Shown piece after piece: positions 2,400 through 60,212 of a DNA stretch of 64,000 bases. The position numbers and the translations under genes were made by a program. The notes beneath the pieces were generated by a model. That model did not search any database and was not told where the DNA came from. It saw only the letters and a list, made by a program, of their open reading frames with translations. This stretch comes from Candidatus Poseidoniaceae archaeon (GTDB lineage: Archaea; Thermoplasmatota; Poseidoniia; Poseidoniales; Poseidoniaceae), in assembly GCA_943789275.1 (NCBI GenBank), contig CALSTM010000003.1, positions 596,053-660,052 of the forward strand, written 5' to 3'. Each line of letters begins with the position of its first letter. Within the stretch, counting starts at the first letter, position 1.

Positions 2400-2870
2400 A
2401 TGAAATCACTCCTTCTTGCCGTGTTAATGGTCTCCATGTCCCTTTCTGTGGGCCTTGTGGAACTGAACAAAGCCCCTTGGCTTGTTGAAGACGGTGAAAG
2501 CGAACTTGAAGAGTTAAACAATCCCATGCACACAACCGCACCTTCGATTTCCTATTCCTCAAGCACACTCGCTCTTTCCAACAACACCGCTATGACGCCA
2601 GTGACAGCGACGAATTCAGGTGGTACGGTTGGAGTTCCGGTGGCAATAGAACTCAGTACCATCGATGAATGGCTGTCTTTAGCCCTTGATTCTGATGGAT
2701 ACAGGCATGTTTCCGCTGCCGACACCACCAGTAGTGATCTCATGTATGCGACCGACACCAGTGGGGCTTGGGTCAACATAACCGTTGATGCTCCAGGACA
2801 GGTCGGGGAATACAACTCAATCGCTGTTGATTCTGAAGACGTCGTGCATATTGCCTACTTCAGCCTATAA
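2400..2870 (+). CDS. N-terminal signal-peptide-bearing segment of giant surface protein 1. It is separated from the body by an apparent +1 frameshift at about 2865-2870.
   Basis: MKSLLLAVLMVSMSLSVGLVELN is an N-terminal signal-like hydrophobic segment. The segment ends with the repeat ...IAVDSEDVVHIAYFSL followed by a stop. The same repeat unit (..K..DLKYATC..) continues in frame +1 from about 2866. The upstream ORF-track start (2274) is TTG and lacks a signal peptide. Confidence 0.5.
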   Translation: MKSLLLAVLMVSMSLSVGLVELNKAPWLVEDGESELEELNNPMHTTAPSISYSSSTLALSNNTAMTPVTATNSGGTVGVPVAIELSTIDEWLSLALDSDGYRHVSAADTTSSDLMYATDTSGAWVNITVDAPGQVGEYNSIAVDSEDVVHIAYFSL

Positions 2871-23309: not shown

Positions 23310-23508
23310 TGTGGCTTACTTTGGTCAACAAACATCTTCTGGAATTTTCTCGCTCTATGCTTACAATGCTTCAAATGCGACGCTATGGATGGTTTCAGGG
23401 AGTAATGCTAATCGTGGTGTTGCTGTAACTATTGACGGTGTATTGTATGGTAGTCGTGGTCTACAGTTCTCTTCCAGGTGGCTCTACACTCTGGGCGCAC
23501 AACCCTAA
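23173..23508 (+). CDS. Short frame-shifted fragment of giant locus 2 carrying kelch-like LYAYNASNATLWMVSG repeats.
   Basis: It continues the xLWAHNxSNGTxW repeat family seen at the end of the preceding ORF and the start of the following one. Confidence 0.35.
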   Translation: MCLWQSSVTVVPTVVRHGRTTSATGHLGASQSYMMHTTAGAQVIGDVAYFGQQTSSGIFSLYAYNASNATLWMVSGSNANRGVAVTIDGVLYGSRGLQFSSRWLYTLGAQP

Positions 23509-25891: not shown

Positions 25892-25942
25892 TGACGCTCA
25901 AGACGTTCACAATTTCGGCGAGCAATAGCGGCGGTTCAGTCA

Positions 25943-27331: not shown

Positions 27332-27458
27332 GGTCCCGACAATAGCGTACTCGCCGAACGATTTGGACCATGACCAATAACACGGCAAGCAGCGACCTTC
27401 CGCTCTCGCCGACCATCACAGGTTCGGTGAAATCACGTCGTGGGCCATCAACGCCATC

Positions 27459-30400
27459 TTGCCAGCGGTCTGTACCTTCGAGACCAGCAACGGTACCATT
27501 TGGGGAACACCGACCGAACTGTGGACGCAAACGGCCTACATGGTCTGGGCCAACAACAGCGGTGGGTCCGCCGTCGCCTACCTCAACATCACCGTAGTTG
27601 ACGAACTACCAACGATTGCTTACTCGCCGAACGATTTGGATTTGACCAACAACACGGCAAGCAGTGACCTTCCGCTCTCGCCGACCGTGACAGGTTCTGG
27701 TGAATTTACGTCGTGGGCCATTAACGCAAGTCTTCCGAGCGGACTTACCTTCGAGACCAGCAACGGAACCATTTGGGGAACACCGACCGAACTGTGGACG
27801 CAAACGGCCTACATGGTCTGGGCCAACAACAGCGGTGGGTCCGCCGTCGCCTACCTCAACATCACCGTAGTTGACGAACTACCAACGATTGCTTACTCGC
27901 CGAACGATTTGGATTTGACCAACAACACTGCTTCGAGCGATCTTCCACTTTCGCCGACCGTGACAGGTTCTGGTGAATTTACGTCGTGGGCCATTAACGC
28001 AAGTCTTCCGAGCGGACTTACCTTCGAGACCAGCAACGGAACCATTTGGGGCACACCGACCGAACTGTGGACGCAAACGGCCTACATGGTCTGGGCCAAC
28101 AACAGCGGTGGCTCAAGCGAGGCCTACCTCAACATCACCGTAGTTGACGAACTACCAACGATTGCTTACTCGCCAAACGACTTGGATTTGACCAACAACA
28201 CGGCAAGCAGTGACCTTCCACTCTCGCCGACCGTGACTGGTTCTGGTGAATTTACGTCGTGGGCCATTAACGCAAGTCTTCCGAGCGGTTTGACTTTCGG
28301 TACGAGCAACGGAACAATTTGGGGCACACCGACCGAACTGTGGACGCAAACGGCCTACATGGTCTGGGCCAACAACAGCGGTGGCTCAAGCGAGGCCTAC
28401 CTCAACATCACGGTCAACGATCAAATGCCAACGCTTTCGTATTCACCTGCCAACCTCACGCTCTACAAGAACACCGCCAGCAGTGATTTGCCGTTGAACG
28501 CCACGCTGACCGGTCCTGGAGAGATCACTTCGTGGACCATCGCACCCGGTTTGCCGAACGGTTTGACCTTTGAGACAAGCAACGGAACGATATGGGGCAT
28601 TCCAACACAGCGTATGACCACCACACAGTTCACGGTCTGGGCCAACAACAGCGGTGGGTCCGCCGTCGCTTACCTCAACATCACGGTGCTCCACGAAGCA
28701 CCGATGTTCAGCTATTCATCCTACAACTTGACGCTGGTCAACAACACGGCCATGACTGCAATGGGTGCGCCGATTACGGGTGGCGACGTCACATCGTGGG
28801 AAGTTGAACCGGCTTGGCCAACAGGTCTCTATTTAGGGTCCTTATATGGAACAATTTGGGGAACGCCAACCGTGGTTCAAAACATGACCATGTACCAGAT
28901 TTGGGGCAACAATTCAGGTGGCTCTCACTCTGTCTTCATCAACATCACCGTCGATGACCGAGCACCTTCGTTCACCTACAACCCAGAAAACCTCACCCTG
29001 ACCAACAACACGGTCAGCACTGACCTACCGCTTGTACCAACGGTTTCGAATACTGGAGATGCTCCAACAGGTTGGGTCTTGATGGGCACCTTGCCTGCAG
29101 GTCTCAACTTTGGCACCAACAACGGAACCATTTGGGGTACGCCAACCGAGCTATGGACGACCACAAATTACACCGTATACGGGAACAACACCGGCGGTTC
29201 GTTCAATGTGAGCATCAACATTACGGTCAACGATCAGATGCCAACGCTTTCGTATTCTCCAGAGAATTTGACATTCTACAATGATACTGCCAGCAGCGAC
29301 CTTCCACTTTCGCCGACCATCACCGGTTCAGGCGAGTTTGTATCATGGGCCATCAGTCCATCAGAGCCAAGCGGTCTTTCCTTTGATACTTCGAACGGAA
29401 CGCTCAGTGGAACGCCAACTGAACTGCTGACACGTACAATGTTCACGATTACGGCGACCAACACCGGTGGAACAGCAACAGCGTACATCAACATCACAAT
29501 TGTTGACCAAGTGCCGACGATTGCGTACTCGCCAAACGACTTGAGCATGACCAACAATACGGCGAGCAGTGACCTACCGCTTTCGCCAACCATCACTGGT
29601 TCAGGTGAGGTTGTGTCTTGGAGCATCAGTCCATCAGTGCCAAGTGGTTTGGCCTTTGATACTTCAAACGGAACGCTCAGCGGCACGCCGACTGAATTGC
29701 AGACACGGACAATGTACACCATCACAGCAACAAACACCGGTGGGACAGCAACAGCGTACATCAACATCACAATTGTTGACGAAGTGCCGACGATTGCGTA
29801 CTCGCCAAACGACTTGAACATGACCAACAACACGGCAAGCATTGACCTTCCACTTTTGCCGACCATCACCGGTTCAGGCGAGTTCGTATCGTGGGCCATC
29901 AGCCCATCAGAGCCAAGCGGTCTTTCCTTTGATACTTCGAACGGAACGCTCAGCGGAACGCCGACTGAATTGCTGACACGGACAATGTACACCATCACAG
30001 CAACAAACACCGGTGGAACGGCAACAGCCTACATCAACATCACAATCGTTGACGAAGTTCCGACGATTGTCTACTCACCAAACGATTTGAACATGACCAA
30101 CAACACTGCCTCGCTCGATCTTCCGCTCTCGCCAACAGTGACCGGTTCTGGCGAGTTCGTGTCCTGGGCCATCAGCCCTTCAGTGCCAAGCGGTTTGGCC
30201 TTCAGCACCTCAACAGGTGTGCTCAGTGGAACGCCGACAGAATTGCTGACACGTAGTATGTTCACGATTACGGCGACCAACACTGGTGGCTCAAGTATCG
30301 CCTACATCAACATCACCATTGTTGACGAGGTGCCGACCATTGCTTACTCGCCAAACGACTTGAGCATGACCAACAATACGGGGAGCAGTGACCTTCCACT

Positions 30401-30521
30401 TTTGCCGACCATCACCGGTTCAGGTGAGTTGTGTCTTGGGCCATCAGTCCAGCAGTGCCAAGCGGTCTTGCGTTTGACACCTCGACAGGTGTGCTCAGTG
30501 GAACGCCGACTGAATTGCTGA
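27459..30521 (+). CDS. Frame-shifted fragment of giant locus 2 consisting almost entirely of tandem 91-aa Ig-like (He_PIG-like) domains.
   Basis: The listed start is TTG inside a repeat. There are more than 10 consecutive LPTIAYSPNDLxxTNNTASSDLPLSPTxTGSGExxSWAIxxSxPSGLxFxTSNGTxxGTPTEL units. The end runs out of frame within a unit (TGSGELCLGPSVQQC...). Confidence 0.55.
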   Translation: MPAVCTFETSNGTIWGTPTELWTQTAYMVWANNSGGSAVAYLNITVVDELPTIAYSPNDLDLTNNTASSDLPLSPTVTGSGEFTSWAINASLPSGLTFETSNGTIWGTPTELWTQTAYMVWANNSGGSAVAYLNITVVDELPTIAYSPNDLDLTNNTASSDLPLSPTVTGSGEFTSWAINASLPSGLTFETSNGTIWGTPTELWTQTAYMVWANNSGGSSEAYLNITVVDELPTIAYSPNDLDLTNNTASSDLPLSPTVTGSGEFTSWAINASLPSGLTFGTSNGTIWGTPTELWTQTAYMVWANNSGGSSEAYLNITVNDQMPTLSYSPANLTLYKNTASSDLPLNATLTGPGEITSWTIAPGLPNGLTFETSNGTIWGIPTQRMTTTQFTVWANNSGGSAVAYLNITVLHEAPMFSYSSYNLTLVNNTAMTAMGAPITGGDVTSWEVEPAWPTGLYLGSLYGTIWGTPTVVQNMTMYQIWGNNSGGSHSVFINITVDDRAPSFTYNPENLTLTNNTVSTDLPLVPTVSNTGDAPTGWVLMGTLPAGLNFGTNNGTIWGTPTELWTTTNYTVYGNNTGGSFNVSINITVNDQMPTLSYSPENLTFYNDTASSDLPLSPTITGSGEFVSWAISPSEPSGLSFDTSNGTLSGTPTELLTRTMFTITATNTGGTATAYINITIVDQVPTIAYSPNDLSMTNNTASSDLPLSPTITGSGEVVSWSISPSVPSGLAFDTSNGTLSGTPTELQTRTMYTITATNTGGTATAYINITIVDEVPTIAYSPNDLNMTNNTASIDLPLLPTITGSGEFVSWAISPSEPSGLSFDTSNGTLSGTPTELLTRTMYTITATNTGGTATAYINITIVDEVPTIVYSPNDLNMTNNTASLDLPLSPTVTGSGEFVSWAISPSVPSGLAFSTSTGVLSGTPTELLTRSMFTITATNTGGSSIAYINITIVDEVPTIAYSPNDLSMTNNTGSSDLPLLPTITGSGELCLGPSVQQCQAVLRLTPRQVCSVERRLNC
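27480..28410 (+). repeat. About 3.4 near-identical tandem 273-bp Ig-like-domain repeats within giant locus 2.
   Basis: Spurious antisense ORFs recur at 27606, 27879 and 28152 (period 273) with nearly identical translations. The protein unit TSNGTIWGTPTELWTQTAYMVWANNSGGSAVAYLNITVVDELPTIAYSPNDLDLTNNTASSDLPLSPTVTGSGEFTSWAINASLPSGLTFE occurs three times. Confidence 0.85.
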
Positions 30522-30870
30522 CACGTAGCATGTTCACGATTACCGCAACCAACACCGGTGGAACGGCAACAGCGTACATCAACATCACAATCGTTGACGA
30601 ACTTCCAACGATTGCATACTCGCCGAACGATTTGATTATGACCAACAATACTGTTTCGAGTGATCTTCCGCTTTCGCCGACCATCACCGGCTCTGGCGAG
30701 ATTGTATCGTGGGCCATCAGCCCATCAGAGCCAAGCGGTCTTTCCTTTGATACTTCGAACGGAACGCTCAGCGGAACGCCGACTGAATTGCTGACACGTA
30801 CAATGTACACCATCACAGCAACAAACACAGGTGGGACAGCAACAGCGTACATCAACATCACCGTTCTTGA
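29230..30870 (+). repeat. About six tandem 273-bp Ig-like-domain repeats at roughly 90% identity. They span the frameshift at about 30430-30520.
   Basis: VPTIAYSPNDLxMTNNTASxDLPLxPTITGSGExVSWxISPSxPSGLxFDTSNGTLSGTPTELxTRTMxTITATNTGGTATAYINITIVDE recurs six times. Confidence 0.8.
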
Positions 30871-33121
30871 CATCATCCCAGAAATCTCCTATTCTCCGCC
30901 AGAAATGGTCCTTACAAACAACACTTCGATGGCCTATTGGTCTCCACTCAATGTCGGTGGGCCCGCTCTTTCATGGAGTATTTCTCCAGAACTTTCTCCA
31001 GGACTGTTGTTCGATTCCTCCAACGGTACAATTTCGGGACTACCAACCGAGGTTGCCCCACTGCTCAACTATACAGTCTCAGCGACCAACAGTGGAGGCA
31101 CTTCCGAGTTTAGCATCAACATCACCGTCGTTGGAAACGTTCCTCTCATTGAATATGTGCCGAGTGACATTGTTTTACTCAACAATTCGAGCATACTTGA
31201 TTTGTTACCGCTTTCTACCGGTGGAGCTGTGTTGGAATGGTCAATTACTCCGGAACTGCCGCTCGGCCTTACGTTTGACAACACATCTGGTCGCATGAAC
31301 GGTACGCCTGTTGAAGTGAGCAGCCAAACTCAGTATTCAGTGACGGTCATCAACGATGACGGATTTTTGACTGTTATGGTCAACATCACCGTTGAAGACC
31401 TTGTTTATGAGACCGCTCAAGGCGTTTTCAATGCCCTCAATAAATCGATGATTGAATCAATCGAGCCGCTTTCTTTCATCAGCGATTCAGTGTACGAGAT
31501 TCACCCTGCTCTTCCAACGGGTCTTTCGATTGGACCGTTGAACGGTACCATTTGGGGAGTTCCGAGTGAAGTCATGGAACTGAAGAGTTACACTGTGTAT
31601 TCGAATTCAAGTTTGTTCAATGACACCTTCATCATAATGCTGCGAGTTCTTGAAGACTCAGACAACGATTCCTTACCAGACGCTCTGCCTGTTGGATATG
31701 ATTTGATCGGAGAACTCATTGAAGATTTAGATGATGATGACGACGGTTATTCTGATTTGCTTGAAGACGAGTGTTTGAGCGATTCGCTTGACGATAATTC
31801 GATGCCCGGCGACCTTGACGGTGATTCCATTTGTGACCCGCTGGACAACGACGTTGACGGTGACGGACTGTTCAACCTCTTGGAAGATAGCAGTGGGAAC
31901 TACACATCAATCATTGATACGGGGACGAACCCACTGCTTGCAGATACTGATGGTGACGGCGTTTGTGATGGCCCACTCATCCCTGCGAACGGAGGCTGCA
32001 CAATGGGACCTGATGCCTTCCCGAATGACCCTTCAGCATTTGCCGATACCGATGGAGATGGTATGCCCGACGAAATGTTTGGAAATTCAACCAGTGAACC
32101 ACCGTTGATACTTGATTTGGATGATGATAATGATTTGTGGACCGACCTCCAGGAAGAGGAGTGCGGAACTGACCATCTTGACCAATACAGTGTACCTGAA
32201 GATGCAGACGGTGACGGAATCTGTAACAACCTCGATGAGCGAATGGATCTTTCTTTCAATCTCACCTATCCGATTACCAACCGAACACTCCTCTTGGATG
32301 AAGAGATGGAGCCTTTGCTTCCGAACATCACTGGAATTGGGGAAATTGAGACTTGGGAAATTGTTGGGGAATTACCTGATGGTTTGACCTTTGGATGGAG
32401 TCCAGCTCGAGACGCCCTTCTGGACGGAAGCATCCGAGGTACACCTACTGAACTGATGAACGCCACTGATTTCGTCATTTGGGCGAACAATTCGGGGTAC
32501 AGTCGATCGTTCATGATTACACTTGAAGTTTCATATGAATACTATCCAGAGGATAACAATGCGACACCGCAGGTATTGGGCTACATCTTGTGCCCGCTCT
32601 TTTTGTTGGTTTTGGTTGCCGTGGCTATGCTACTTGTTCCAAAGAAAAAAGTTGTCTTCAGAGATGCTCAGCCACAAAACACGTCCTCTCGTCCGAAGTT
32701 CAAGAGCGGTGCTGGAACTCGGGAGGACCCGTTCATTATCCAGACGCTTACCGGCGTTGAAGCCAGAACGTTTGTGCTTAGCAAGGAATCAATCACGACA
32801 AATGAAGTCTCACCTTCGAGCGTGTTTGACATTCGGGATGAAAACGAGGTCGAGAACGATGGCCGATTTAAAATCCTCAATCACCACAATGAATCTTCTT
32901 CTGTGGAAGAGGAATGGTCACCGGTTTCAAGACTCAACTCTGACCAAGAAGGTGTTCTCATCTACCAATTGGCTTTTGATGACCGTGACTCTGCTACGGT
33001 TCGTGAAAGTTCTTACACGACTTTGTTCAAGGTAGGGAACGAATCCGTGTATTTCCAATGGACGGTCAAGATGAAACCGAAGAAGAACCCGAGGAAGAAG
33101 TCGGGCAAGAAATCAAAGTGA
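30431..33121 (+). CDS. C-terminal segment of giant locus 2. It contains Ig-like domains, acidic TSP3-like Ca-binding repeats, a single TM helix, and a basic cytoplasmic tail homologous to the tail of giant protein 1.
   Basis: The acidic block DSDNDSLPD...DTDGDGVCDGPLIPANGGC...DADGDGICNNLD parallels the corresponding block of gene 1. The TM helix is LGYILCPLFLLVLVAVAMLLV. The tail shares GxGTxEDPF..., ...SVYFxWTVxxKP and the basic C-terminus KKNPRKKSGKKSK with gene 1. This locus has no terminal HhH-like domain. Confidence 0.65.
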   Translation: MSWAISPAVPSGLAFDTSTGVLSGTPTELLTRSMFTITATNTGGTATAYINITIVDELPTIAYSPNDLIMTNNTVSSDLPLSPTITGSGEIVSWAISPSEPSGLSFDTSNGTLSGTPTELLTRTMYTITATNTGGTATAYINITVLDIIPEISYSPPEMVLTNNTSMAYWSPLNVGGPALSWSISPELSPGLLFDSSNGTISGLPTEVAPLLNYTVSATNSGGTSEFSINITVVGNVPLIEYVPSDIVLLNNSSILDLLPLSTGGAVLEWSITPELPLGLTFDNTSGRMNGTPVEVSSQTQYSVTVINDDGFLTVMVNITVEDLVYETAQGVFNALNKSMIESIEPLSFISDSVYEIHPALPTGLSIGPLNGTIWGVPSEVMELKSYTVYSNSSLFNDTFIIMLRVLEDSDNDSLPDALPVGYDLIGELIEDLDDDDDGYSDLLEDECLSDSLDDNSMPGDLDGDSICDPLDNDVDGDGLFNLLEDSSGNYTSIIDTGTNPLLADTDGDGVCDGPLIPANGGCTMGPDAFPNDPSAFADTDGDGMPDEMFGNSTSEPPLILDLDDDNDLWTDLQEEECGTDHLDQYSVPEDADGDGICNNLDERMDLSFNLTYPITNRTLLLDEEMEPLLPNITGIGEIETWEIVGELPDGLTFGWSPARDALLDGSIRGTPTELMNATDFVIWANNSGYSRSFMITLEVSYEYYPEDNNATPQVLGYILCPLFLLVLVAVAMLLVPKKKVVFRDAQPQNTSSRPKFKSGAGTREDPFIIQTLTGVEARTFVLSKESITTNEVSPSSVFDIRDENEVENDGRFKILNHHNESSSVEEEWSPVSRLNSDQEGVLIYQLAFDDRDSATVRESSYTTLFKVGNESVYFQWTVKMKPKKNPRKKSGKKSK

Positions 33122-43525: not shown

Positions 43526-43744
43526 GCATTGTACATCGTAAAGGGGGTATATGAGGTCCTGTATTTTGAACGTGCCAAAATTGGAAGGTCTTTGAGCTTG
43601 GTTTATATTCGGTTTATTCCAGTCCAGTGCGGCGTTTTTGATGGTTTTGTACGTGCCTTCACTGCAACGGTTTACCACCAAACCATTACGATTCATTGGT
43701 TTTTGTTTCGTGAACTTCAAGTGCGTGGCTCCCTACAACCCATC

Positions 43745-44371
43745 ATGGCGGTTCAGCAAGTTCGCATCGAAGTTCGGTTGCCGGAAGGCCATTGGGCGGG
43801 GGATGTAACGCGCAGCCACCCTTCAGCAGTCTTGCGAATCGAGGAACACATGCCCTTGCAGAAGGGAAGAGGGACGGCTCGTGCTTCATGCAGTGAGGAG
43901 ATTACTGCTACGGTATCGGAACATTCTGGTATCGAAGAAGTCCGCAGTTTTGGGAAACAGAGTTTTGTGGTGGACATTATTGCAGGAGGTGGAGGTTTTC
44001 TCAAACCACTTCTCAAAGTCGGCGTAATCCCACATACACCGTTCGAGGTTCGGGACGGTTGGGTCGAATGGACCATTTCATGCGCTCGTGAAAAAGTGCG
44101 AGATTTGCTTTCTGGCTTTGATGATGAAGACATTCCCTACCAACTGGTTTCGACGCGTGGAGTCACCAATCGATTGCTCACACCTCGTCAACGCTATGTG
44201 TTTGATACGGCCATGAAGGAAGGGTACTACGATGTGCCACGACGTATCACATTGACCGAGTTAGCCGTTGTCCTTGACGTTGCGAAATCCACTTTGTCTG
44301 CACAACTCCATCTCATCGAATCAACGGTACATCACGCCTTTGCTGATGATATCCGTCGGCGTAGCCCCTAA
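43745..44371 (+). CDS. Bat-type HTH_10 transcription regulator with an N-terminal sensor-like domain.
   Basis: The C-terminus LTPRQRYVFDTAMKEGYYDVPRRITLTELAVVLDVAKSTLSAQLHLIEST is a canonical HTH_10 motif. An internal ATG at 43745 is chosen over the ORF-track start at 43529. Confidence 0.6.
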   Translation: MAVQQVRIEVRLPEGHWAGDVTRSHPSAVLRIEEHMPLQKGRGTARASCSEEITATVSEHSGIEEVRSFGKQSFVVDIIAGGGGFLKPLLKVGVIPHTPFEVRDGWVEWTISCAREKVRDLLSGFDDEDIPYQLVSTRGVTNRLLTPRQRYVFDTAMKEGYYDVPRRITLTELAVVLDVAKSTLSAQLHLIESTVHHAFADDIRRRSP

Positions 44372-51125: not shown

Positions 51126-51818
51126 TTGAAGCAGATTCATTGTGCTTTGTCCATGGCTCGAAATGTAAGTTTGGCTGATGCTGCTGCTCGAACCATTGCT
51201 GACCGAGCACCGAGATTGTTGGTTGTGGCAGGAGCAACCGGAACAGGGAAATCCACTGCCTCGGTTCAATTGGCGGCTGAGAACAACTTCGCACGGCTTC
51301 TTTCAACCGATGCAATACGAGAAATTATGCGTTCTTGCGATGAAGAGCGCAGCCAGTCAGCCCTCCACCGTTCATCCTTTTCACGTGGTGATTCAGGTGA
51401 GCCTGTCCTTGATTGGATGGAAACATGCAAAGCTGTGGAAACTGGAATCATCGCTACGATTGATCGAGCTCGTCGTGAAGGCATCGACTTGATTATCGAA
51501 GGCGTACATATCAATCCAAGTGAACGCTTACTGCGCAGTTGGCGCGAGGCCGGTGGAATTGCAATTGGCCTTGTTATGGCCGTCGGTGAGGAAGACCGTC
51601 ATCGTTCGATGATTCGTTCCCGAGAAGCCCATTCGTTTCGACGTGCAGACCGTTACTTGGCAGCCTTCCCTCGAATTCGCGCCATACAAGACGGGTTAAT
51701 CGAGCGAGCTAAAATTGCATCTTGGCCAATCGTTGATTTATCCCGCGTCAGTAAAGATACTGAACGCATCAAGCACCTCATGGACCTTGCTTGGAACGAA
51801 CACACGCAGCGTCGTTAG
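51126..51818 (+). CDS. P-loop kinase resembling archaeal 2-phosphoglycerate kinase.
   Basis: Walker A motif VAGATGTGKSTASVQLA followed by STDAIREIMR, which is characteristic of the 2-PGK family. Confidence 0.5.
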   Translation: MKQIHCALSMARNVSLADAAARTIADRAPRLLVVAGATGTGKSTASVQLAAENNFARLLSTDAIREIMRSCDEERSQSALHRSSFSRGDSGEPVLDWMETCKAVETGIIATIDRARREGIDLIIEGVHINPSERLLRSWREAGGIAIGLVMAVGEEDRHRSMIRSREAHSFRRADRYLAAFPRIRAIQDGLIERAKIASWPIVDLSRVSKDTERIKHLMDLAWNEHTQRR

Positions 51819-52264
51819 GCGTGCGTGATGTCAAACGCCAACTGTACAGTCATCATTACTGAACCGTCAGATATGCCGAGTTCCGCTTCAAAGTGAAGTG
51901 TGCTCGCTGAAGTTTCGTTGACCTGCATTCCGATGAGTTTGATTTCAATACCCCTCAACTCGCCATGATAGAGCATGTCGTTGTGGACGCTTTGGAATGC
52001 CGTTTCTCCGGCTTCAAGCGGTTCCAGACCACCGTCAATCCACAACTGTGTTCGTGCTTCAGTAAGTTCCGGAACGGCATCGGCCACTTCCAGCGAGGTC
52101 ACCAGCACTCCGTCGGAAGCCGTGTCATGGGGCATGGTAAGCCCAGCAACTTTGACGCCAAAGATGGCCATCGACAGCAGCGACATCAGCAAGACCACAC
52201 CGGTTGCCAGCAGCATTTGTGCAGCATCTCTGTCTTCTGTTGAGCGATCATGGAGCGTGCGCAT
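51815..52264 (-). CDS. Type-IV-pilin-like (class III signal peptide) protein, possibly a minor pilin or FlaF/FlaG-like.
   Basis: The N-terminus ...EDRDAA|QMLLATGVVLLMSLLSMAIFGV has a charged region, then Ala-Gln, then a ~20-aa hydrophobic helix. It lies in a tight operon with the secretion ATPase and membrane platform genes. Confidence 0.4.
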   Translation of the reverse strand: MRTLHDRSTEDRDAAQMLLATGVVLLMSLLSMAIFGVKVAGLTMPHDTASDGVLVTSLEVADAVPELTEARTQLWIDGGLEPLEAGETAFQSVHNDMLYHGELRGIEIKLIGMQVNETSASTLHFEAELGISDGSVMMTVQLAFDITHA

Positions 52265-52710
52265 CAGGCACCACCTCCACGGTTCCAGACGTCAAGCGTA
52301 ACCGTCCATGCGTGTTCATCGATGGACAGCAAGTGGTGAACAGTTACCGTTTCACCGGCGGGTGTCCCCGTATTCCCGTACGGAGCAGAAGTGCCGCTGT
52401 TCTGTGCTAACCAGCAGTTGGATTCTTTTCCTGCGACGATGTAATCCTGGAGCAGTTGGCACGCTTCGTCCAATTCTCCGTTTTCGAGTAATTCACTCAA
52501 GCGATTCTCACCCGAGATTTCTGCTTCAAGTCCAATACCGTATCGAAAGGCATCATCTCCAGCGATTTCCAGCGCTGCATCATGAGCGACCGAGGGTGCA
52601 TCCGGCACTTGAATTCGAATCAAGAAGGTTGCCGACATGAAAAACAGCCAAAACAGCGTCAACATCTCGAGGATGTGGATTTGCGCTTCTTCGTTTTGAC
52701 GCATTCTCAA
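52264..52710 (-). CDS. Type-IV-pilin-like (class III signal peptide) protein.
   Basis: The N-terminus ...RQNEEA|QIHILEMLTLFWLFFMSATFLI shares the same architecture. Its start abuts the stop of the upstream TadC-like gene. Confidence 0.4.
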   Translation of the reverse strand: MRMRQNEEAQIHILEMLTLFWLFFMSATFLIRIQVPDAPSVAHDAALEIAGDDAFRYGIGLEAEISGENRLSELLENGELDEACQLLQDYIVAGKESNCWLAQNSGTSAPYGNTGTPAGETVTVHHLLSIDEHAWTVTLDVWNRGGGA

Positions 52711-54345
52711 TCACCCGAAGAACAGCGGCGAAGGAACGAACGTACCCGTAGACGGATTGAGACCTGGCACTTCGGTGATACCGATAAGGTTCGGTGTGAA
52801 CGCTAAGAAGTTGAACACGACAATGGACACGAGAATCATCATTCCCGAGTGCTTGAATCCAGTTGAGAATCGACCGGTTGACATGAGGCCCGCCATTGTA
52901 CCGTTACCGACCGCCTGCATGGTGACACCGTAATAGAACACCGTCAGGAAAAACAACGGGTCAATGTTACGAATCGTCATGTTACCGATGGTTTGACCTC
53001 CACTGTCACCACCGTCTTCACCGCTGGAGTTCGAACCGGCAATGGCAGGAATAAAGACCACAGCAAGTGTAACAATAACCCCGAGGAAAACGAAGTATGA
53101 TGTCCAAATAACCGCAATATACGAACCGATTGCACGCTTTCGTTCTCCTTCTAAGAACTTCAATTCTCGAGAGTCGTTTGCCGCAGTGACAAGGATATCC
53201 GAAATCTTACCACCTGCGCGGTCTGCTTCAGCAATAAGAGCAATCGCACGTTGAACCAGAGGCGTTCCTACACGGTCAGCAAATTGTTTGATGACATCAC
53301 TGAACTTGATACCCCAACTGAGTTGGTCGGACATTTTCTTGACTTCGTCATTTAACGCTCCGTATTCGGAGGTCGCCAGCGTTTGAATTGCAACGGTCAT
53401 CGAAAGACCACCCTTCCAGTATTCTGCCAAGTCACGAAGGAAATCGGGGAACTTTTCTTCGACTTCGTTCTTTGCGTTCTCGACCCGTTCCCAGTAGTAG
53501 GACGCAGGATACAAGAGGAAAAAGAACGTCATCCCGAAGAAGTTGAGGAAAATGAACGGCCGTATGGATTTGGGCCCGAGATTGACTTCAGGGCCAAGCC
53601 AGTACGATTTGTTGTTCATGTTCGATGGAATGCCATCGTAGTAGTGGACAGTGACATCAAACGTCATTTCTGATATTCGCTTCCCTTCTTCTTGGGAAAA
53701 GGCAACAAGTTCGTATCGTTTTTCCGCAGGAATATGATCAAGGGTGATGCCACAACCGTCGTTATCGGGATTGTTATCGGTATCTGTAGTGCCTTGGTGG
53801 GTTGCAAGGACTTCACCGCTTTGGGAGCGAATAGCGATGATGTAGTCGGTTGGTGTATCTGCATCAACGCTGCAATTGAGCCAAAGAGGCTGGAGTACGA
53901 CGATACCGGCAATCTGGTCCGAGTTTACGCCAGGGACGTCGAAGTTCTTGCCTTGTTTGGAAAATGTTCTCCATTCTTCGTTTGCCCATACCACACGGTC
54001 AGGTTCATCCTGAAGAATCGAACACGATTGATTTGCGGAGTAATCCGGTTTAATGTTCGTGTTGAACTTATCTCCCATTGAATTGCCTTGAGAATCTTCA
54101 GCGGTCATACCACAGTACAGGTTGGTGAACATTGGCTCACCGTTTGCAGTTGGAATGAATCCCGAATTGGTGGCCCAAACAGCTCCAGTGACCAAGCCTA
54201 AGAAGATGGAAACGAAAAGAATGGCATACAGTTTTGTGAGGGTGGAGTCGTCCTTCGGTAGGTCAAGTTTGACGATAATTTTATTCTTCTTTTTTGCCAA
54301 CTTCTCACCTCCTCTCACATTTCTTGTTCTTTGCTGCTTGTCCAA
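52711..54345 (-). CDS. TadC/FlaJ-like type IV pilus or archaellum assembly membrane protein (T2SSF domain) with a large N-terminal extracytoplasmic insertion.
   Basis: The C-terminal T2SSF-like block is WKGGLSMTVAIQTLATSEYGAL...LVQRAIALIAEADRAGGKISDIL, flanked by TM helices. The N-terminus has one TM followed by a ~230-aa hydrophilic domain. Confidence 0.7.
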   Translation of the reverse strand: MDKQQRTRNVRGGEKLAKKKNKIIVKLDLPKDDSTLTKLYAILFVSIFLGLVTGAVWATNSGFIPTANGEPMFTNLYCGMTAEDSQGNSMGDKFNTNIKPDYSANQSCSILQDEPDRVVWANEEWRTFSKQGKNFDVPGVNSDQIAGIVVLQPLWLNCSVDADTPTDYIIAIRSQSGEVLATHQGTTDTDNNPDNDGCGITLDHIPAEKRYELVAFSQEEGKRISEMTFDVTVHYYDGIPSNMNNKSYWLGPEVNLGPKSIRPFIFLNFFGMTFFFLLYPASYYWERVENAKNEVEEKFPDFLRDLAEYWKGGLSMTVAIQTLATSEYGALNDEVKKMSDQLSWGIKFSDVIKQFADRVGTPLVQRAIALIAEADRAGGKISDILVTAANDSRELKFLEGERKRAIGSYIAVIWTSYFVFLGVIVTLAVVFIPAIAGSNSSGEDGGDSGGQTIGNMTIRNIDPLFFLTVFYYGVTMQAVGNGTMAGLMSTGRFSTGFKHSGMMILVSIVVFNFLAFTPNLIGITEVPGLNPSTGTFVPSPLFFG

Positions 54346-55334
54346 ACCAATATGGCGTAAGCAATGTGAATCATTGGTACAAACCCGAGGACAATACCAT
54401 AGAGCATACCTTCAGACATTTGAGCACCGCTACCGGAGACCCAGAACATGATGACCAGCATGACAATCAGGAACAGCGGCATAGCCACAGCGACGACAAT
54501 GTACGATTCTGCCAGAAGCGCAATCGATTCAAGGAACATCTGAAGGCGTGTTCGGTTTTCACGCATGTAGTGCTCTGCACGGTTAAGGAAATACAATTTC
54601 AGTTGACCACCAGCAGTCAATGTACCAACCATGCCTTGGAAGAACTCCGTTAACCAAACGGATGCGGCTCGATCGACGCTCATTTTCATGGCCGTGATGA
54701 GGTCATAGCCAAGCAAGGTAACATCTCTGTACACCATGGCAGCGTCGTCTGCGACGTCACCGTAGATGTCTTTGTTCATGGCAAGAGAGCGGAAAATCTT
54801 GGAAGGTGTTGCGTTTGCCGCAGACATTGCAGCGGTATAGGATGCAGCGTAAGGAAGGTACTTCTCAATCATAGCACCTCGTCGTGCAGCCTCTCGGGCT
54901 GCTCCACCCTTGTTGTACTTGAAAGCGCCATAGGGAATAATCAATCCACCAAGAGCAATGATGAGTGTTTTGAGGATTGGTGGGAAGACTTGGTATGCAA
55001 ATCCATCGCAACCGTTTCCTGGTTTGTTCGGGTCAACCAAATCTTGATTCCAGTACTCCCACTCGAAACAGTAGTCGATGGTCGCAGGGTCTTGGATGCT
55101 CTCCCAATAGGCAATGACGCCGATATCTGGGATGAAAAACAGCGAGACGAACCCCCATGAAACCAGCGTAATGGCAATGGTTGTCATGATTGCAGTAGCA
55201 AGATAGACTTCTGGCATAATCGGCATAGCGCCTTTGACCAGGCTCTTTGCGAGCTCTTTGTCGCCACGAGCACGCTTACGCAAGAATCGACCGAGAAAAC
55301 GGTTGCAAATCCTTTGCCACGTGGTTAAGTCCAT
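54315..55334 (-). CDS. TadB/FlaJ-like pilus assembly membrane protein (T2SSF domain).
   Basis: Typical T2SSF topology with a cytoplasmic helical domain (...KYLPYAASYTAAMSAANATPSKIFRSLAMNKDIYGDVADDAAMVYRDVTLLGYDLITAMK...) between TM helices. It overlaps the downstream gene by 31 nt. Confidence 0.7.
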   Translation of the reverse strand: MDLTTWQRICNRFLGRFLRKRARGDKELAKSLVKGAMPIMPEVYLATAIMTTIAITLVSWGFVSLFFIPDIGVIAYWESIQDPATIDYCFEWEYWNQDLVDPNKPGNGCDGFAYQVFPPILKTLIIALGGLIIPYGAFKYNKGGAAREAARRGAMIEKYLPYAASYTAAMSAANATPSKIFRSLAMNKDIYGDVADDAAMVYRDVTLLGYDLITAMKMSVDRAASVWLTEFFQGMVGTLTAGGQLKLYFLNRAEHYMRENRTRLQMFLESIALLAESYIVVAVAMPLFLIVMLVIMFWVSGSGAQMSEGMLYGIVLGFVPMIHIAYAILVWTSSKEQEM

Positions 55335-55353
55335 CGAATCACTCCACTTTTGT

Positions 55354-56880
55354 TCAACGAAGGCCGTCGACCCGCTCTAAGATTTCAGTTGGCCGGACAT
55401 AATACTCGGTGACGATTTGCGACACTTGGTCTGCCTTACGAATATCGTTCAAAACCATCCATTCAAGGATACGCTTTCGAGTACGCAATTCTCGTCGCAT
55501 ATCATCTTGTGAATAATTGAGTTTCACCATGATTTTCTCAAGAACATAGGATTTACCGCTAAAGATGAAATCATCACTGGTGACGTCCCAACGGAACACT
55601 TCGTTGGTGATGATTTCCAGAGAGTTCGGGTCGATACCGACAATCTCAACCAGTTGCTTCGTACGTCGAACACGCTTTCCATTGATACGGGTTTGAATCT
55701 GAATGCAACACGCTTCCAAAGCAGGCAGAAGAACACGCGGGATGTCAATCGGTTTGTTCTCTAACCGGTGGACAAGGGACGGTACGGAGTCGGCGTGGAC
55801 CGTTGAATATGCGCAGTGACCCGTCGCCATGGCTTGGAACAGAACGTAGGCTTCAGCACCACGAATCTCCCCGACAATGATGTATTCTGGCCGCTCACGA
55901 AGAGCCGCTTTGAGCAACTCGAACTCCCCAATGACACCGTCGGTCGATTCTCCACCGAAACCTTGCCGAGTAAGACCTGGCACCCAGTTTGGTTGAGGGA
56001 TATTGACTTCACGGGTTGATTCGATTGAGACGATTTTCATTTGCCAAGGAATGAAAATACACATGGCGTTGAGCGTCGTTGTCTTCCCGGAAGCAGTACC
56101 GCCGACAAACAGCATTGGAACTTCATTTTGGAATCCGATCCAAAGATAAGCGACCATTAACGACGACATGGTTCTGAACGCCACGATATCAGCAGGTGAG
56201 AACGGGTCGTCTTTGAATCGTCGAATACAGAAGGCTGAACCACGGGTTGAGATTTCGTGCCCAAGTTTCATGACAATTCGAGAACCATCCATCAGCGTAG
56301 CATCCAGCAATGGGTCGGCAACTGAAATGTGCTTGCCACAACGTTGGGCGAGTTTGATAACATAGGATTCCAATTCGTGGTCTGTGTTCCAAACGCAGGT
56401 TGTTTCAACCGATTCGAATTTCCGATGGTAGGCAAAGATCGGAACTCCAGTGCCGTCCATAGAAATATCTTCGACGTTAATGTCATTCATGAGGACATCC
56501 ATTTGCCCGTAACCAATCAGGTCTCGGCGCAAATAATAGAAAATCTTGGATTTCGACTTTTTATTTATTTTCATGCTATAGGCTTTGATGACTTTATCCA
56601 TAGCCGTTCGAATGTAGGCTTCCGGATTTGCATCGATTTCTTCGATGTTGGCCGTAAGGGAGCGAATGAAGATGTCGAGGATTTCATCTCGGTATTCTTG
56701 TTCTCTTTTGGTCATCGGTGGCTCGATGATTTGGTAGATGATGTTGAGCGTTTGCTTGTCACGAACGATGCGCGCAAAGGCGTGCGGTGGCATGACTGGG
56801 TACTTGTCGAGCTCGTCGTATTGGGCGCGTTGTTTGGCTCGCTGACGCTTGCCACCACCTTTGTTTTGTTTTCTTGCCAT
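55354..56880 (-). CDS. FlaI/TadA/VirB11-family type IV pilus or archaellum assembly ATPase.
   Basis: Walker A motif GGTASGKTTTLNA. Asp or His box ...EYIIVGEIRGAEAYVLFQAMATGH... The C-terminal zinc-less FlaI-like domain is ~500 aa. Confidence 0.9.
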   Translation of the reverse strand: MARKQNKGGGKRQRAKQRAQYDELDKYPVMPPHAFARIVRDKQTLNIIYQIIEPPMTKREQEYRDEILDIFIRSLTANIEEIDANPEAYIRTAMDKVIKAYSMKINKKSKSKIFYYLRRDLIGYGQMDVLMNDINVEDISMDGTGVPIFAYHRKFESVETTCVWNTDHELESYVIKLAQRCGKHISVADPLLDATLMDGSRIVMKLGHEISTRGSAFCIRRFKDDPFSPADIVAFRTMSSLMVAYLWIGFQNEVPMLFVGGTASGKTTTLNAMCIFIPWQMKIVSIESTREVNIPQPNWVPGLTRQGFGGESTDGVIGEFELLKAALRERPEYIIVGEIRGAEAYVLFQAMATGHCAYSTVHADSVPSLVHRLENKPIDIPRVLLPALEACCIQIQTRINGKRVRRTKQLVEIVGIDPNSLEIITNEVFRWDVTSDDFIFSGKSYVLEKIMVKLNYSQDDMRRELRTRKRILEWMVLNDIRKADQVSQIVTEYYVRPTEILERVDGLR

Positions 56881-57010
56881 ACGCGCACCCTCTGCCGAAG
56901 CATTTTGTCACACGCTATGGCCGACTATAACTCTTGGGTGAAAACAACCCCAAAAACCGTTACCTGCGAGCAGAATATTTTCTCCACAATCTCCGTTTTG
57001 ACGGCAGAGT

Positions 57011-57568
57011 TTATTCCTCGTTTTCAAACGCAGAAAGCCACTGTTCACAGGCGGCTTGAAACTGGTCGAGTTCAACGTTGTTATCAATCAAATAATTTGA
57101 TTCAGCAATGATTTGTTCAAGGCCCCATCCACGCTCTCGTGCATCACGAATCTCAAACGATTCTCGGTCACCGTCTTCCGAACGACCTCGGTTCTGAATC
57201 CGAGTAAATCGTGTATCGGGTGAAGCATCAACAGCCAAGGAAGAGAAGTTATTCCCCCAGCGTTGTTCAAAAACGATGCGTTCGGCCGTTCCTCGCATGC
57301 CCTCGATAAGGACAATTGAGTGGTTCTTCAAGTGTGCATCAACAGCGTCTGCCAGTCGCACTGCGAGTACATCTTCACCGTGTTCGGCACGTAACTGTGC
57401 TGCGATTTCACCAAAAATTCCTGGAGATTCTTCCAATTCTAACCGTCGAACTTCAGCACGAACCATGTCACCCATCGACAACACTGGGATGCCGTGTGAA
57501 TGCAGTACATTGGCGAACTCACCTTTGCCTGAGCCCGGCATACCGCACACTGCAACGACTCGGGCCAT
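57011..57568 (-). CDS. UPF0200-family archaeal P-loop nucleotide kinase (adenylate or dephospho-CoA-kinase-like).
   Basis: MARVVAVCGMPGSGKGEFA...VLSMGDMVR...IVLIEGMRG...RFTRIQNRGRSED...RDARERGWGLEQIIAESNYLIDN aligns with the archaeal UPF0200 family (MKIIGITGMPGSGKST...GIRG...RGRSDD...ERELSWG). The ATG at 57568 is chosen. Confidence 0.75.
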   Translation of the reverse strand: MARVVAVCGMPGSGKGEFANVLHSHGIPVLSMGDMVRAEVRRLELEESPGIFGEIAAQLRAEHGEDVLAVRLADAVDAHLKNHSIVLIEGMRGTAERIVFEQRWGNNFSSLAVDASPDTRFTRIQNRGRSEDGDRESFEIRDARERGWGLEQIIAESNYLIDNNVELDQFQAACEQWLSAFENEE

Positions 57569-57630
57569 GCTTGAACGGCGCAGCCGAATGCTCATCAAGA
57601 TACCTCCTTTCAGTAGCCAAAGTTTGCGTT

Positions 57631-59331
57631 TCAGTTTGAGAACTCCGCCTTGCCCCAACGTCGGTCCATCAACTTCCAAAGCAGTGCAGAGGCAAGAATC
57701 AAACCAACCGAGATAGCAATCATGCCTTTGTAACCTTGCTCAACCATGCTCTGGTCGTACATGGAAGCAGTCGCAGCCAGACCGTCTTGCGATGCTCGCT
57801 CCCACCAGTTCCCGTACAGTGACACGTCGCCTTGAGTGAACGACAGCAGGAACAACAGCAACAGCGGGACAACGGTTCCAATCCAAAACCAAATCATAAT
57901 CGATGCATCAAAAATGGCCTTGTTCGGACGTAAACCCATCAAGAAAGCCGTCAGAGCAACGATGTAAACGGAGTTCGCAAACATGACGATGATGCTGGTT
58001 GGAAGCGCACCCCATTCGTCCAATCGCCACGCCATGAGGACAATGAAAATCAGTGAGATCCATGATGTTGCAAGGAAGTAAACCACCACTTTTGCTCGAA
58101 TCAGTTGCGGGACACGGAGAGGGAGTCCGTTCATGAATTCCGGTGAGTCAAGTATGGTCAGCCATGAGTAGAAGTTGAATCCAAAGAAGCCGAGGAAAGG
58201 GGCATACGAAAGTAAATTGATTGGTATTGGGGCTTCTGCAAAGTCAACCAGCCACGCCATTCCAAGCAGAACAAGCAACGGAATGGCGTATGAAACGGTC
58301 ATTTTCTTGAGCGACCCCGAACGGAACAGGTCAACGAATTCTTTCGCCACGATGAGTCGAATCTCACCGCGCCCAAGGAAGCCCAATCGATTGTAAATCG
58401 GGAGAAACAATTCTTTTCGCTCGACAACTGATACGTCGAAGTCATCGATGATGAGGGTGGATGAAAGCCAACCCAATCCGACACTCCCGGCCAAGGCCAG
58501 TAAAGCAGTGAAAGGGTTCTGTGAATTCTGTACGCCGAGTCCCCAGAGCATCGAACCAATGTCGAATTTACCTAAGCCAATCGCGATTCCAAGTACAACG
58601 ATAAGTGCAGGTCCGACGATGGTGTACGGTCGTCCTCGCATCCACAGTGCTGAGGCAAAAAAGGCGATGGCAAGGCCTTGTGCAAGGGTGATAATCATCG
58701 CTAACCAAGTCCATGGCAGGCTTGACCATTCCAGTGGAGTCTTGATGTTCGCCGCCGATTCAAGCAGTATGCCAAGTGCCATTCCGGTGACCACAGGAGT
58801 GAGGATGAGCATGACATAGAAGCACAAGTCTTTGACAAAATAAGCAAAGTGAGCAACCGAATTCGGCAAGGGCTGCAGCGCTGGAGCTGCAAGGAGGTAA
58901 TTCTTGGTTCCTGCCCGGTGAACGATGGCGTCATGACCCATGAAAGCGAACGTACCCATTCCAAGACTGAACATCAACAAGGGGAGGTGGAGCGCAAATC
59001 GGAGTTCATCCCAAGTGAACGTTTTCGATTCCAAGTCGCTCACTTGGGCGGTCGAATCCCCAACTAAAAACTGCAAACCAATGGTCGTCACAGCGGTAAC
59101 CAACGTCAGTAGAAGCGGAAACAACACGATTTGTCGTTTTTTAGCGAACTCAATGCTTTTTCGTCCTTCCTCTTTGAACATCACTCGAAAGGTGGCAGAA
59201 AAGGCGTTCCAACCTCGCAACGGCTCGTGCAAGTGTTGCTGATGTGAACTGGTGCCAAGCGGCTCTTGCAGCGAATGTCCATCGCCAACCACTTCTTCCC
59301 AATCACGTGAGACAACGCTTACTCCTGGCAC
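57631..59331 (-). CDS. Large polytopic ABC-2-type transporter permease.
   Basis: A 566-aa protein with at least 12 hydrophobic helices. It has a GTG start and is separated by only 2 nt from the stop of the upstream ABC ATPase. Confidence 0.6.
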   Translation of the reverse strand: MPGVSVVSRDWEEVVGDGHSLQEPLGTSSHQQHLHEPLRGWNAFSATFRVMFKEEGRKSIEFAKKRQIVLFPLLLTLVTAVTTIGLQFLVGDSTAQVSDLESKTFTWDELRFALHLPLLMFSLGMGTFAFMGHDAIVHRAGTKNYLLAAPALQPLPNSVAHFAYFVKDLCFYVMLILTPVVTGMALGILLESAANIKTPLEWSSLPWTWLAMIITLAQGLAIAFFASALWMRGRPYTIVGPALIVVLGIAIGLGKFDIGSMLWGLGVQNSQNPFTALLALAGSVGLGWLSSTLIIDDFDVSVVERKELFLPIYNRLGFLGRGEIRLIVAKEFVDLFRSGSLKKMTVSYAIPLLVLLGMAWLVDFAEAPIPINLLSYAPFLGFFGFNFYSWLTILDSPEFMNGLPLRVPQLIRAKVVVYFLATSWISLIFIVLMAWRLDEWGALPTSIIVMFANSVYIVALTAFLMGLRPNKAIFDASIMIWFWIGTVVPLLLLFLLSFTQGDVSLYGNWWERASQDGLAATASMYDQSMVEQGYKGMIAISVGLILASALLWKLMDRRWGKAEFSN

Positions 59332-59333
59332 GG

Positions 59334-60125
59334 TTACTCCTCCTCAGTTTCTCCGTCCTTGACACCTTCGTTACTCAGCCGCTCAACATCTTCGATTGAG
59401 CGTCCAACCAAGCGGATGAAGACATCTTCCAACGTCTCTTCATCCGATGTTTTGAGTCCTTTAACGGTGCCAGCGGCGAGGACTTTGCCGTTGTTGATAA
59501 TCGCCATTCGGTTGCACATGCGCTCCGCCATTTCCAGAACGTGTGAACAGAGAAAAATCGTTCCACCGTTTTTCACATGTTCAAGGAGCCATTGGCGGCA
59601 TTTTCGCTGATAAATTGGGTCAAGGTTGGCAAACGGTTCATCGAGGAACAGGAGTTTCGGTTTGTGAATAAACGCAGCAGCAAGCATGACTTTTTGACGT
59701 TGACCTTTGGACAAATCTTTGCACATTGTGTCTCGCTTCTCATCCAGTCCAAACCAGTCAATCCAGTGCTCAACATTGTCATCGATACGGTCAACACTGC
59801 GGAGTTTTGCCACGAACTCAAGGAATTCTACAGGGGTAAGGAAGGACGGTGGTGATTCTGATTCAGGGACAATTCCGATGTTGGCTTTGACCTTCTGGGG
59901 GTCGGACACTGCATTGACTCCCAAAACTTCGATTCGACCTTTACTGGGTCGTAATTGGCCGGTGAGGAGTTTGATGAAGGTGGATTTCCCGGCACCGTTG
60001 GGGCCAAAAACACCGAAGAATTCACCGGCGTGAACTTCGACGTTCAGCGGATGAAGAGCAATGAAGTCACCGTATTTTTTGGCCATGTCTATTGCCTTAA
60101 CGAGCGGTGCGGTCGATTCAACCAT
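59334..60125 (-). CDS. ABC transporter ATP-binding protein.
   Basis: Walker A GPNGAGKSTFIKLL, ABC signature LSKGQRQKV, Walker B LLFLDEPFANLD and the H-loop CSHVLE are all present. The ATG at 60125 is chosen. Confidence 0.88.
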   Translation of the reverse strand: MVESTAPLVKAIDMAKKYGDFIALHPLNVEVHAGEFFGVFGPNGAGKSTFIKLLTGQLRPSKGRIEVLGVNAVSDPQKVKANIGIVPESESPPSFLTPVEFLEFVAKLRSVDRIDDNVEHWIDWFGLDEKRDTMCKDLSKGQRQKVMLAAAFIHKPKLLFLDEPFANLDPIYQRKCRQWLLEHVKNGGTIFLCSHVLEMAERMCNRMAIINNGKVLAAGTVKGLKTSDEETLEDVFIRLVGRSIEDVERLSNEGVKDGETEEE

Positions 60126-60212
60126 ACACTGTGTAAACGGTCGTGGTCTTTGAGTTCTTGGTTGACAGTTCATGAACGGTGAAATGATGAACTGAAACCG
60201 TTTGGCACAACC

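Follow-up and report, generated by a model that had tools for sequence, protein, structure and literature searches.

Archaeal type IV pilus systems have a secretion ATPase of the PilB/FlaI family and a polytopic membrane platform with two T2SSF domains, encoded by one gene or two. One group of archaeal pilus ATPases, euryarchaeal clade 2, is defined by PilB3, PilB4 and PilB5 of Haloferax (PMC6491452). The clade 2 pili of Haloferax volcanii, of the PilB3-PilC3 or PilB4 type, serve adhesion rather than motility and combine a PilB3-related ATPase, often two TadC-like genes, and pilin-like companions of DUF families, with pilins possibly encoded in trans (PMC4858521, PMC6491452). Two TadC-like genes are frequent in clade 1 as well as clade 2 loci (Makarova et al. 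2016, PMC4858521), and the platform fission seen in such loci is also the origin of bacterial TadB and TadC (PMC6668835). The operon described here occupies positions 51815-56880 on the minus strand of a 64,000-nucleotide stretch of Candidatus Poseidoniaceae archaeon DNA (contig CALSTM010000003.1, positions 596,053 to 660,052), which is called the window below. It encodes an assembly ATPase, two platform proteins (F1 and F2) and two small proteins (S1 and S2). The five genes probably encode the central parts of an archaeal machine of the type IV pilus type, distinct from the archaellum, that is related to the PilB3-like systems of clade 2 and found throughout the Poseidoniaceae.

The first gene (55354-56880, minus) encodes a protein of 508 amino acids (aa) of the PilB/FlaI family, with an intact Walker A motif, GGTASGKTT. 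Pfam T2SSE matches it with 87 bits against a cut-off of 24.9 (E=1.2e-24), in agreement with the FlaI/TadA-like ATPase that the original prediction had placed at the head of the operon. FlaI is its best NCBIfam match, at 391.7 bits and below the equivalog cut-off of 550, while the TadA/CpaF-type model TIGR03819 reaches 127.5 bits against a cut-off of 373. Pfam PilB3_C also matches below its threshold (18.5 vs 27 bits). Among solved structures the closest relative is 2OAP, the secretion ATPase GspE of A. fulgidus (392 bits over residues 25-501), ahead of FlaI from S. acidocaldarius (265) and CpaF (124). The likeness to GspE covers the ATPase alone. Because 2OAP is the best relative of known structure, its hexameric mechanism probably applies, by analogy, to the Poseidoniaceae enzyme.

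A nearer group of relatives is found in five distant archaeal loci (L087-L090 and L092), whose ATPases have PilB3_N and PilB3_C domains and are 57-59% identical to the one in the window (604-633 bits). In two of them, L087 and L089, PilB3_C scores above threshold. Since the ATPase is nearest to these PilB3-domain enzymes, and since a split platform is known from clade 1 and clade 2 loci, the operon would be placed in the euryarchaeal clade 2 PilB3-like group, by similarity rather than phylogeny.

The platform is split over two genes, as originally proposed, since one protein corresponds to the N-terminal half of FlaJ/PilC and the other to the C-terminal half. F1 (54315-55334, minus; 339 aa) has one Pfam T2SSF domain at residues 166-292 and matches positions 46-224 of 555 in an NCBIfam FlaJ model; its hydropathy indicates that it crosses the membrane with four transmembrane (TM) helices and has an external loop of 44 aa, in which there are two cysteines. 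F2 (52711-54300, minus; 529 aa) likewise has a single Pfam T2SSF domain and matches positions 223-458 of 465. The two FlaJ scores are 52.0 and 58.7 bits, with cut-offs of 400-570. Together the genes supply the two T2SSF domains by which the platform of an archaeal type IV pilus system is recognised. The earlier labels "TadB-like" and "TadC-like" are replaced by these FlaJ halves, which are the best matches; no model specific for TadB or TadC matched. The structure predicted for full-length F2 is poor, with a mean predicted local distance difference test score (pLDDT) of 54, and only its cytoplasmic bundle and its insertion are read here. The predicted T2SSF bundle matches PilC, EpsF and TcpE in structure.

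The start of F2 determines the spacing of the platform genes. Its longest open reading frame begins at TTG 54345 and would give 544 aa, whereas TTG 54300, 8 bases downstream of GGAGGTGA, gives 529 aa. Orthologues begin with MARKK... or MAKKK... and are 523-540 aa long, and one that is 93% identical (P0001) has exactly 529 aa. TTG 54300 is taken as the true start because the orthologous N-termini, the GGAGGTGA motif and the length of P0001 agree. From this start a gap of 14 nucleotides (nt) separates F1 from F2, and the 31-nt overlap first reported for the two genes is an artefact of the longest reading frame.

F2 also has an insertion between TM1 and TM2, which by hydropathy measures 206 aa (residues 43-248; 53557-54174, minus), somewhat shorter than the approximately 230 aa first estimated. 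It is acidic and has four conserved cysteines and three N-glycosylation sequons. The insertion is probably external, because the Lys-rich N-terminus and the T2SSF domain are predicted by hydropathy to sit across the membrane from it. In the structural model it forms an eight-stranded beta domain, with pLDDT 70-81 over about residues 100-220, and is predicted to be a beta jelly-roll. The insertion part of the F2 profile is matched by few clusters at 50% identity, so that its sequence is lineage-specific. In relatives of 450-860 aa too, including those of 570-860 aa, the one T2SSF domain is C-terminal and an extended N-terminal stretch comes ahead of it. Second platform proteins with such an addition are therefore frequent in the clade, and a large external platform domain is less unusual than had been thought. 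F2 relatives of about 600 aa were considered as possible unsplit FlaJ proteins and rejected, for they have a single T2SSF domain and follow a separate first-half gene where this was checked.

The last two genes encode candidate pilin-like subunits. In S1 (52264-52704, minus) a 7-aa leader, MRQNEEA, precedes QIHILEMLTLFWLFFMSATFLI; a Pro/Ser linker then leads to an alpha/beta domain, which has two conserved cysteines. S2 (51815-52264, minus; 149 aa) has a 15-aa leader ending in DAA, followed by QMLLATGVVLLMSLLSMAIF and an alpha/beta C-terminal part. S1 is most likely 146 aa long and starts at ATG 52704, rather than at TTG 52710, which would give 148 aa; the ATG is preferred because 67 of 72 orthologues have 146 aa. 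Of the two proteins of about 148 aa first described, S2 thus stands nearly unchanged and S1 becomes slightly shorter.

The conservation of these proteins is concentrated around one site. Position -1 is Ala or Gly and position +1 is Gln in 72/72 orthologues of S1 and in 75/75 of S2, and the Gln is followed in both by about 24 near-invariant hydrophobic residues. The first 24 residues of the mature proteins are 96% identical in S1 and 97% in S2, compared with 69% and 59% for the remainder. The leaders are variable, with 7 aa in 68 of 72 S1 sequences and 7-16 aa in S2. Such a variable leader, with an invariant Ala/Gly-Gln and a hydrophobic helix behind it, is a pilin-type pattern as far as sequence goes. 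The two families show no similarity to each other by hhalign and are therefore not detectable paralogues. Below threshold, Pfam DUF7262 and DUF7288 match S1-like proteins, and DUF7261 and Pilin_N match a few S2 orthologues. Homologues of S2 fall into 1292 clusters; among the 120 listed, all are hypothetical or unnamed and none has a Pfam domain.

The best homologues belong to Candidatus Poseidoniaceae or Poseidonia, that is, to Marine Group II (MGII), in which the Poseidoniaceae are group MGIIa. A profile search with F2 among 1.84 billion representative proteins returned 2381 relatives. When relatives were scanned with one genome per species, 144 genomes had them and 80 were kept; these 80 F2-bearing genomes are all Poseidoniales, including the original MGII genome, CM001443.1. 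In each of 85 related loci, which represent up to 144 species genomes, the genes follow one another as ATPase-F1-F2-S1-S2 as far as the contigs reach. The arrangement of five co-directional genes, already noted in the original prediction, is thus not due to chance. Identity to the proteins of the window is 90-99% for the ATPase, 79-100% for F1, 66-95% for F2, 62-97% for S1 and 51-94% for S2. Synteny is unchanged in a more divergent Poseidoniales lineage (L086), where F2 has 624 aa. Two database entries, MDC0056153.1 (ATPase) and MDC0056156.1 (S1), cluster at 90% identity or above with proteins of L086; they were deposited as "Deltaproteobacteria bacterium", and their source is probably a mis-binned archaeal contig.

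The five distant loci mentioned above are the nearest outside the family and range in GC content from 31% to 59%. A sixth, L091 (GC 29%), was left out of the comparison, as neither an ATPase gene nor an S1-like protein was seen on its contig. All five share a core in which the ATPase (595-797 aa) is followed by two T2SSF proteins, the first of 287-326 aa and the second of 377-613 aa. An S1-like protein of 145-157 aa comes next in four of these loci. By hhalign, the S1 family is homologous to those of L087-L089 (97.4%, E = 1.4e-11, 137 aligned columns), which have in common the motif [AG]-Q-x-H-[IV]-[IL]-E and, at the C-terminus, LW..R.

In three of the distant loci the S1-like gene is followed in turn by one for a larger protein of 438-505 aa (L087 5539-7056, L088 4559-5899 and L089 7992-9308). 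These proteins have no Pfam match. An Ala/Gly-Gln-hydrophobic N-terminus is present in L087 and L089, while the called start in L088 is apparently truncated. S2 may be a much shortened counterpart of them, although its similarity to the 438-aa Gln-start protein of L089 is not significant beyond the N-terminus. In L090 a Peptidase_A24/Arc_PepC_II gene and DUF7289 and DUF7266 pilin-like genes adjoin the pil genes. Compared with these relatives and with clade 2 pili generally, the Poseidoniaceae operon is reduced to five genes and stands without neighbouring DUF7289/DUF7266-type genes, its second Gln-start protein has 149 rather than 438-505 aa, and its F2 has the lineage-specific 206-aa predicted jelly-roll.

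An example of a split platform from clade 1 is the EppA-dependent (Epd) pilus of Methanococcus maripaludis, which likewise uses two single-domain platform genes (PMC6668835). Gln at +1, common to the Epd pilins and to S1 and S2, is essential for the processing of Methanococcus pilins by EppA (PMC4390842), while cleavage in the Poseidoniaceae proteins is predicted. The Epd leaders are rich in Lys, whereas those of S1 and S2 are acidic. The Epd locus also differs in having an EppA gene, a DUF361-type pilin and a large DUF2341 adhesin, which the locus in the window lacks, and the PilB3 domains among the ATPase relatives argue against membership of clade 1.

The bacterial Tad/Flp system offers a second comparison, since its platform also consists of two one-domain T2SSF proteins, TadB and TadC. 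Flp-type pilins are cut after Gly or Ala and have neutral or acidic residues at -2 and -3, a further likeness to the predicted sites of S1 and S2. Tad and archaeal pili share evolutionary roots (PMC6668835). The Tad system differs in its ATPase, however, as the scores for CpaF (124 bits) and TadA (127.5 vs 373) indicate, and no TadB- or TadC-specific match was obtained. Family scans of the window with Pfam and NCBIfam covered open reading frames of at least 140 aa, and in these no Flp motif, TadZ, secretin (RcpA) or TadV was found.

Cleavage of S1 and S2 by a prepilin peptidase, followed by their incorporation into a filament, is plausible from the pattern of their N-termini. Several results weigh against it. 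The Ala-Gln and the helix of the first description are present, but the short leader in front of them is not basic and has a net charge that is acidic or neutral; among orthologues this ranges from -3 to 0 in S1 and from -3 to +2 in S2, acidic or mixed. Neither S1 nor S2 fits a FlaFind-type pattern, the kind of class III signal check that the original prediction had named. Neither protein has a significant sequence match in Pfam, NCBIfam or the PDB, profile searches included. In the AlphaFold2 (AF2) model of S1 (pLDDT 79), residues 5-28 form a helix, the Pro/Ser linker is modelled with low confidence, and three helices and a sheet of four strands follow; this predicted fold finds no pilin-like structural match. 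Among the scanned reading frames of the window there is neither an A24 peptidase nor a recognisable major pilin (Pilin_N, PilA or archaellin). Processing is rated as plausible and not higher because of the acidic leaders, the failing FlaFind-type pattern, the missing family matches and the modelled fold of S1.

The same observations lend themselves to another explanation, which is possible although it seems less probable than a filament built from S1 and S2. The ATPase and split platform would still be a pilus assembly module, but the two proteins could be accessory proteins held outside the cell by an N-terminal anchor, similar in function to FlaF/FlaG or PilN/PilO. They might then remain uncleaved and act together with the F2 jelly-roll, with the pilins proper (of PilA, DUF7289 or DUF7266 type) encoded elsewhere. 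The acidic leaders and the failing FlaFind-type pattern speak for such anchors, as does the model of S1, whose hydrophobic helix is no longer than about 24 residues and whose compact alpha/beta domain, behind the low-confidence linker, has no pilin-like neighbour. The DUF7289/DUF7266 pilin-like genes of related loci are missing beside the Poseidoniaceae operon, and the adhesion pilins assembled by Haloferax PilB3-C3 provide a precedent for subunits encoded in trans (PMC6491452). A plain anchor, however, has no need of a strict Ala/Gly-Gln site and of residues that are 96-97% identical behind a leader that varies freely in length and sequence, a pattern typical of processed pilin-like proteins. 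The two explanations also overlap, since minor pilins can be processed and basal at the same time.

A further alternative, which appears improbable, is a short pseudopilus used for export, surface display or the assembly of substrate-binding proteins, comparable to type II secretion or the Sulfolobus bindosome. Its clients could be the giant surface proteins of the same cells. Such a structure would fit an operon whose pilin-like products are just two small proteins, with no major pilin evident, as well as a platform whose external jelly-roll resembles a binding module, and six large He_PIG/RCC1 surface proteins are encoded in the same window. The bindosome models BasE and BasF of NCBIfam give weaker matches too. 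These are far under their cut-offs, however (193 vs 1000 bits and 18-29 vs 1300 bits). The giant protein genes lie at least 28 kb away, and related loci show no synteny between them and the operon; a crude scan of the window showed no substrate with the same Ala/Gly-Gln leader and no further pilin-like N-termini.

The last alternative, that the operon supplies extra or spare parts of the archaellum (the "additional flagellar components" of KEGG/JGI annotation, PMC6864105), is very hard to maintain: JGI does use the names FlaI and FlaJ and FlaI is the best NCBIfam match of the ATPase, but all scores are under the equivalog cut-offs (FlaI 391.7 vs 550 bits, FlaJ 52-59 vs 400-570), archaellin, FlaH, FlaF and FlaG were not found nearby, the ATPases most closely related to that of the operon have PilB3 domains and come from loci that lack archaellum genes, and the MGII archaellum operon has its own FlaH, FlaI and FlaJ (PMC6336850).

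The operon is distinct from the archaellum. The two have a homologous ATPase and platform and the same probable dependence on an A24 peptidase, but the archaellum has a single two-domain FlaJ where the Poseidoniaceae operon has a split platform. No archaellin, FlaH, FlaF/G or FlaC-E was found among the scanned reading frames of the window, nor archaellin (PF01917), FlaH or FlaF/FlaG in the flanks of five related loci (L001-L005). The MGII motility operon contains FlaA/B, G, H, I and J together with PF01917 flagellins and forms a separate locus (PMC6336850, PMC6864105). The original prediction had read the operon as a non-archaellum type IV pilus without FlaB, FlaH or FlaC-E. That reading is supported by the absence of these genes from the scanned reading frames, by FlaI and FlaJ scores that stay under the equivalog cut-offs, by the kinship of the ATPase to PilB3-domain enzymes, by the separate motility locus, by the strict Ala/Gly-Gln site of S1 and S2 and by the homology of S1 to proteins in the same operon position of distant pil loci.

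Genes of this operon seem to have been seen before. "Additional" flaJ, flaI and tadC genes in MGIIa genomes were mentioned in passing, without analysis (PMC6864105), and are probably the operon of the window. JGI/IMG labels homologues of the ATPase and F2 as "flagellar protein FlaI" and "FlaJ", and one is named TadC.

From the way in which machines of its family are known to work, a mechanism can be proposed for the pilus-type machine. The process would start with a hexameric PilB-type ATPase on the cytoplasmic face, which would power the machine by acting on a heterodimeric platform of two half-size T2SSF proteins, equivalent to a fissioned FlaJ/PilC. A prepilin peptidase encoded elsewhere would cut the leaders of S1 and S2 after the conserved Ala or Gly, leaving mature proteins that begin with Gln and the invariant hydrophobic helix. 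Platform and ATPase could then raise these helices from the membrane to build a filament, or its base or tip, and the filament may also include pilins encoded elsewhere. The predicted jelly-roll of F2 would lie outside the membrane, where it probably touches the base of the filament, a ligand or the envelope of the cell. The machine is likely to serve adhesion to surfaces or particles, not swimming.

A more speculative variant, to which little probability is given, is that the machine is no ordinary pilus: the jelly-roll of F2 and tethered S1 and S2 would act together outside the cell to anchor or gate a pseudopilus of very small length, used for surface display, secretion or the capture of high-molecular-weight substrates. 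If true, the machine would be an offshoot of the archaeal type IV filaments with a function specific to Poseidoniales.

The genes of the operon are closely coupled, as had been predicted. All junctions are tight, and each has a Shine-Dalgarno-like motif upstream (GGAGGTGA, GGAGTGAT or GGGTGA); the stop codon of S1 and the start codon of S2 overlap by 1 nt (TGATG). Upstream of the ATPase gene is an intergenic region of 130 nt (56881-57010, minus). It contains TTATAG (56930-56925), roughly 50 nt from the start codon ATG, and GAGGGTG, which lies 7 nt upstream of that codon. To judge from these motifs, the TTATAG box and the 130-nt gap are a probable promoter of the ATPase gene. A scan for sigma-70 promoters and terminators gave results at the level of shuffled sequence; the sigma-70 consensus is not applicable to archaea, and the scan is hence uninformative.

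At the other end, S2 and a gene that runs towards it on the plus strand (51126-51818) share their last 4 nt (51815-51818), and because the 3' ends overlap there is no space for a separate terminator. The plus-strand gene encodes a 2-phosphoglycerate-kinase-like protein (NCBIfam PRK04220, 110 bits, under the cut-off). Directly upstream of the operon, at 57011-60173 on the minus strand, are genes for an ABC ATPase, a 566-aa membrane protein without a family match and an AAA_17/18 nucleotide-kinase-like protein. This trio is syntenic with the operon in most Poseidoniaceae loci and absent from the distant relatives, and for the latter reason is not counted as part of it.

Elsewhere in the window, two giant open reading frames on the plus strand (2785-13092 and 13677-23309) encode proteins of 3435 and 3210 aa with many He_PIG Ig-like domains and RCC1-like beta-propellers; LamG is present as well in the second. 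They are followed at 23432-33121 (plus) by genes for another four He_PIG proteins, of 462-1020 aa, and the whole block is a putative large set of surface or adhesion proteins. Two further plus-strand genes (861-1550 and 43529-44371) encode proteins with C-terminal HTH_10 DNA-binding domains, of the halobacterial-type regulator fold. Scans of the window for tRNA genes and Rfam families were empty.

In the surface ocean the Poseidoniales are the most abundant archaea of the plankton; to our knowledge, they have never been cultured. Their attachment to particles has been inferred largely from counts of "flagellar" genes. The operon is present in every MGIIa locus examined and is annotated as FlaI/FlaJ with hypothetical proteins. 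Because of this annotation, flaI and flaJ counts based on KEGG Orthology (KO) can mix a pilus-type machine with the archaellum, and KO-based archaellum inventories of Marine Group II may count this locus. One study of MGII used flaJ ratios (PMC6461757), and is an example of flagellar gene counts that possibly include the operon.

General knowledge of type IV filament systems is unchanged by these results, and the operon belongs to a known class of machine. The practical point of its identification is the annotation of MGII genes named FlaI and FlaJ. F2 provides a natural example of a fissioned platform protein that bears a domain predicted to be external, and S1 and S2 are conserved candidate subunits to be sought in metaproteomes. 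Recognised as a separate system, the operon would give the Poseidoniales a second candidate attachment organelle.

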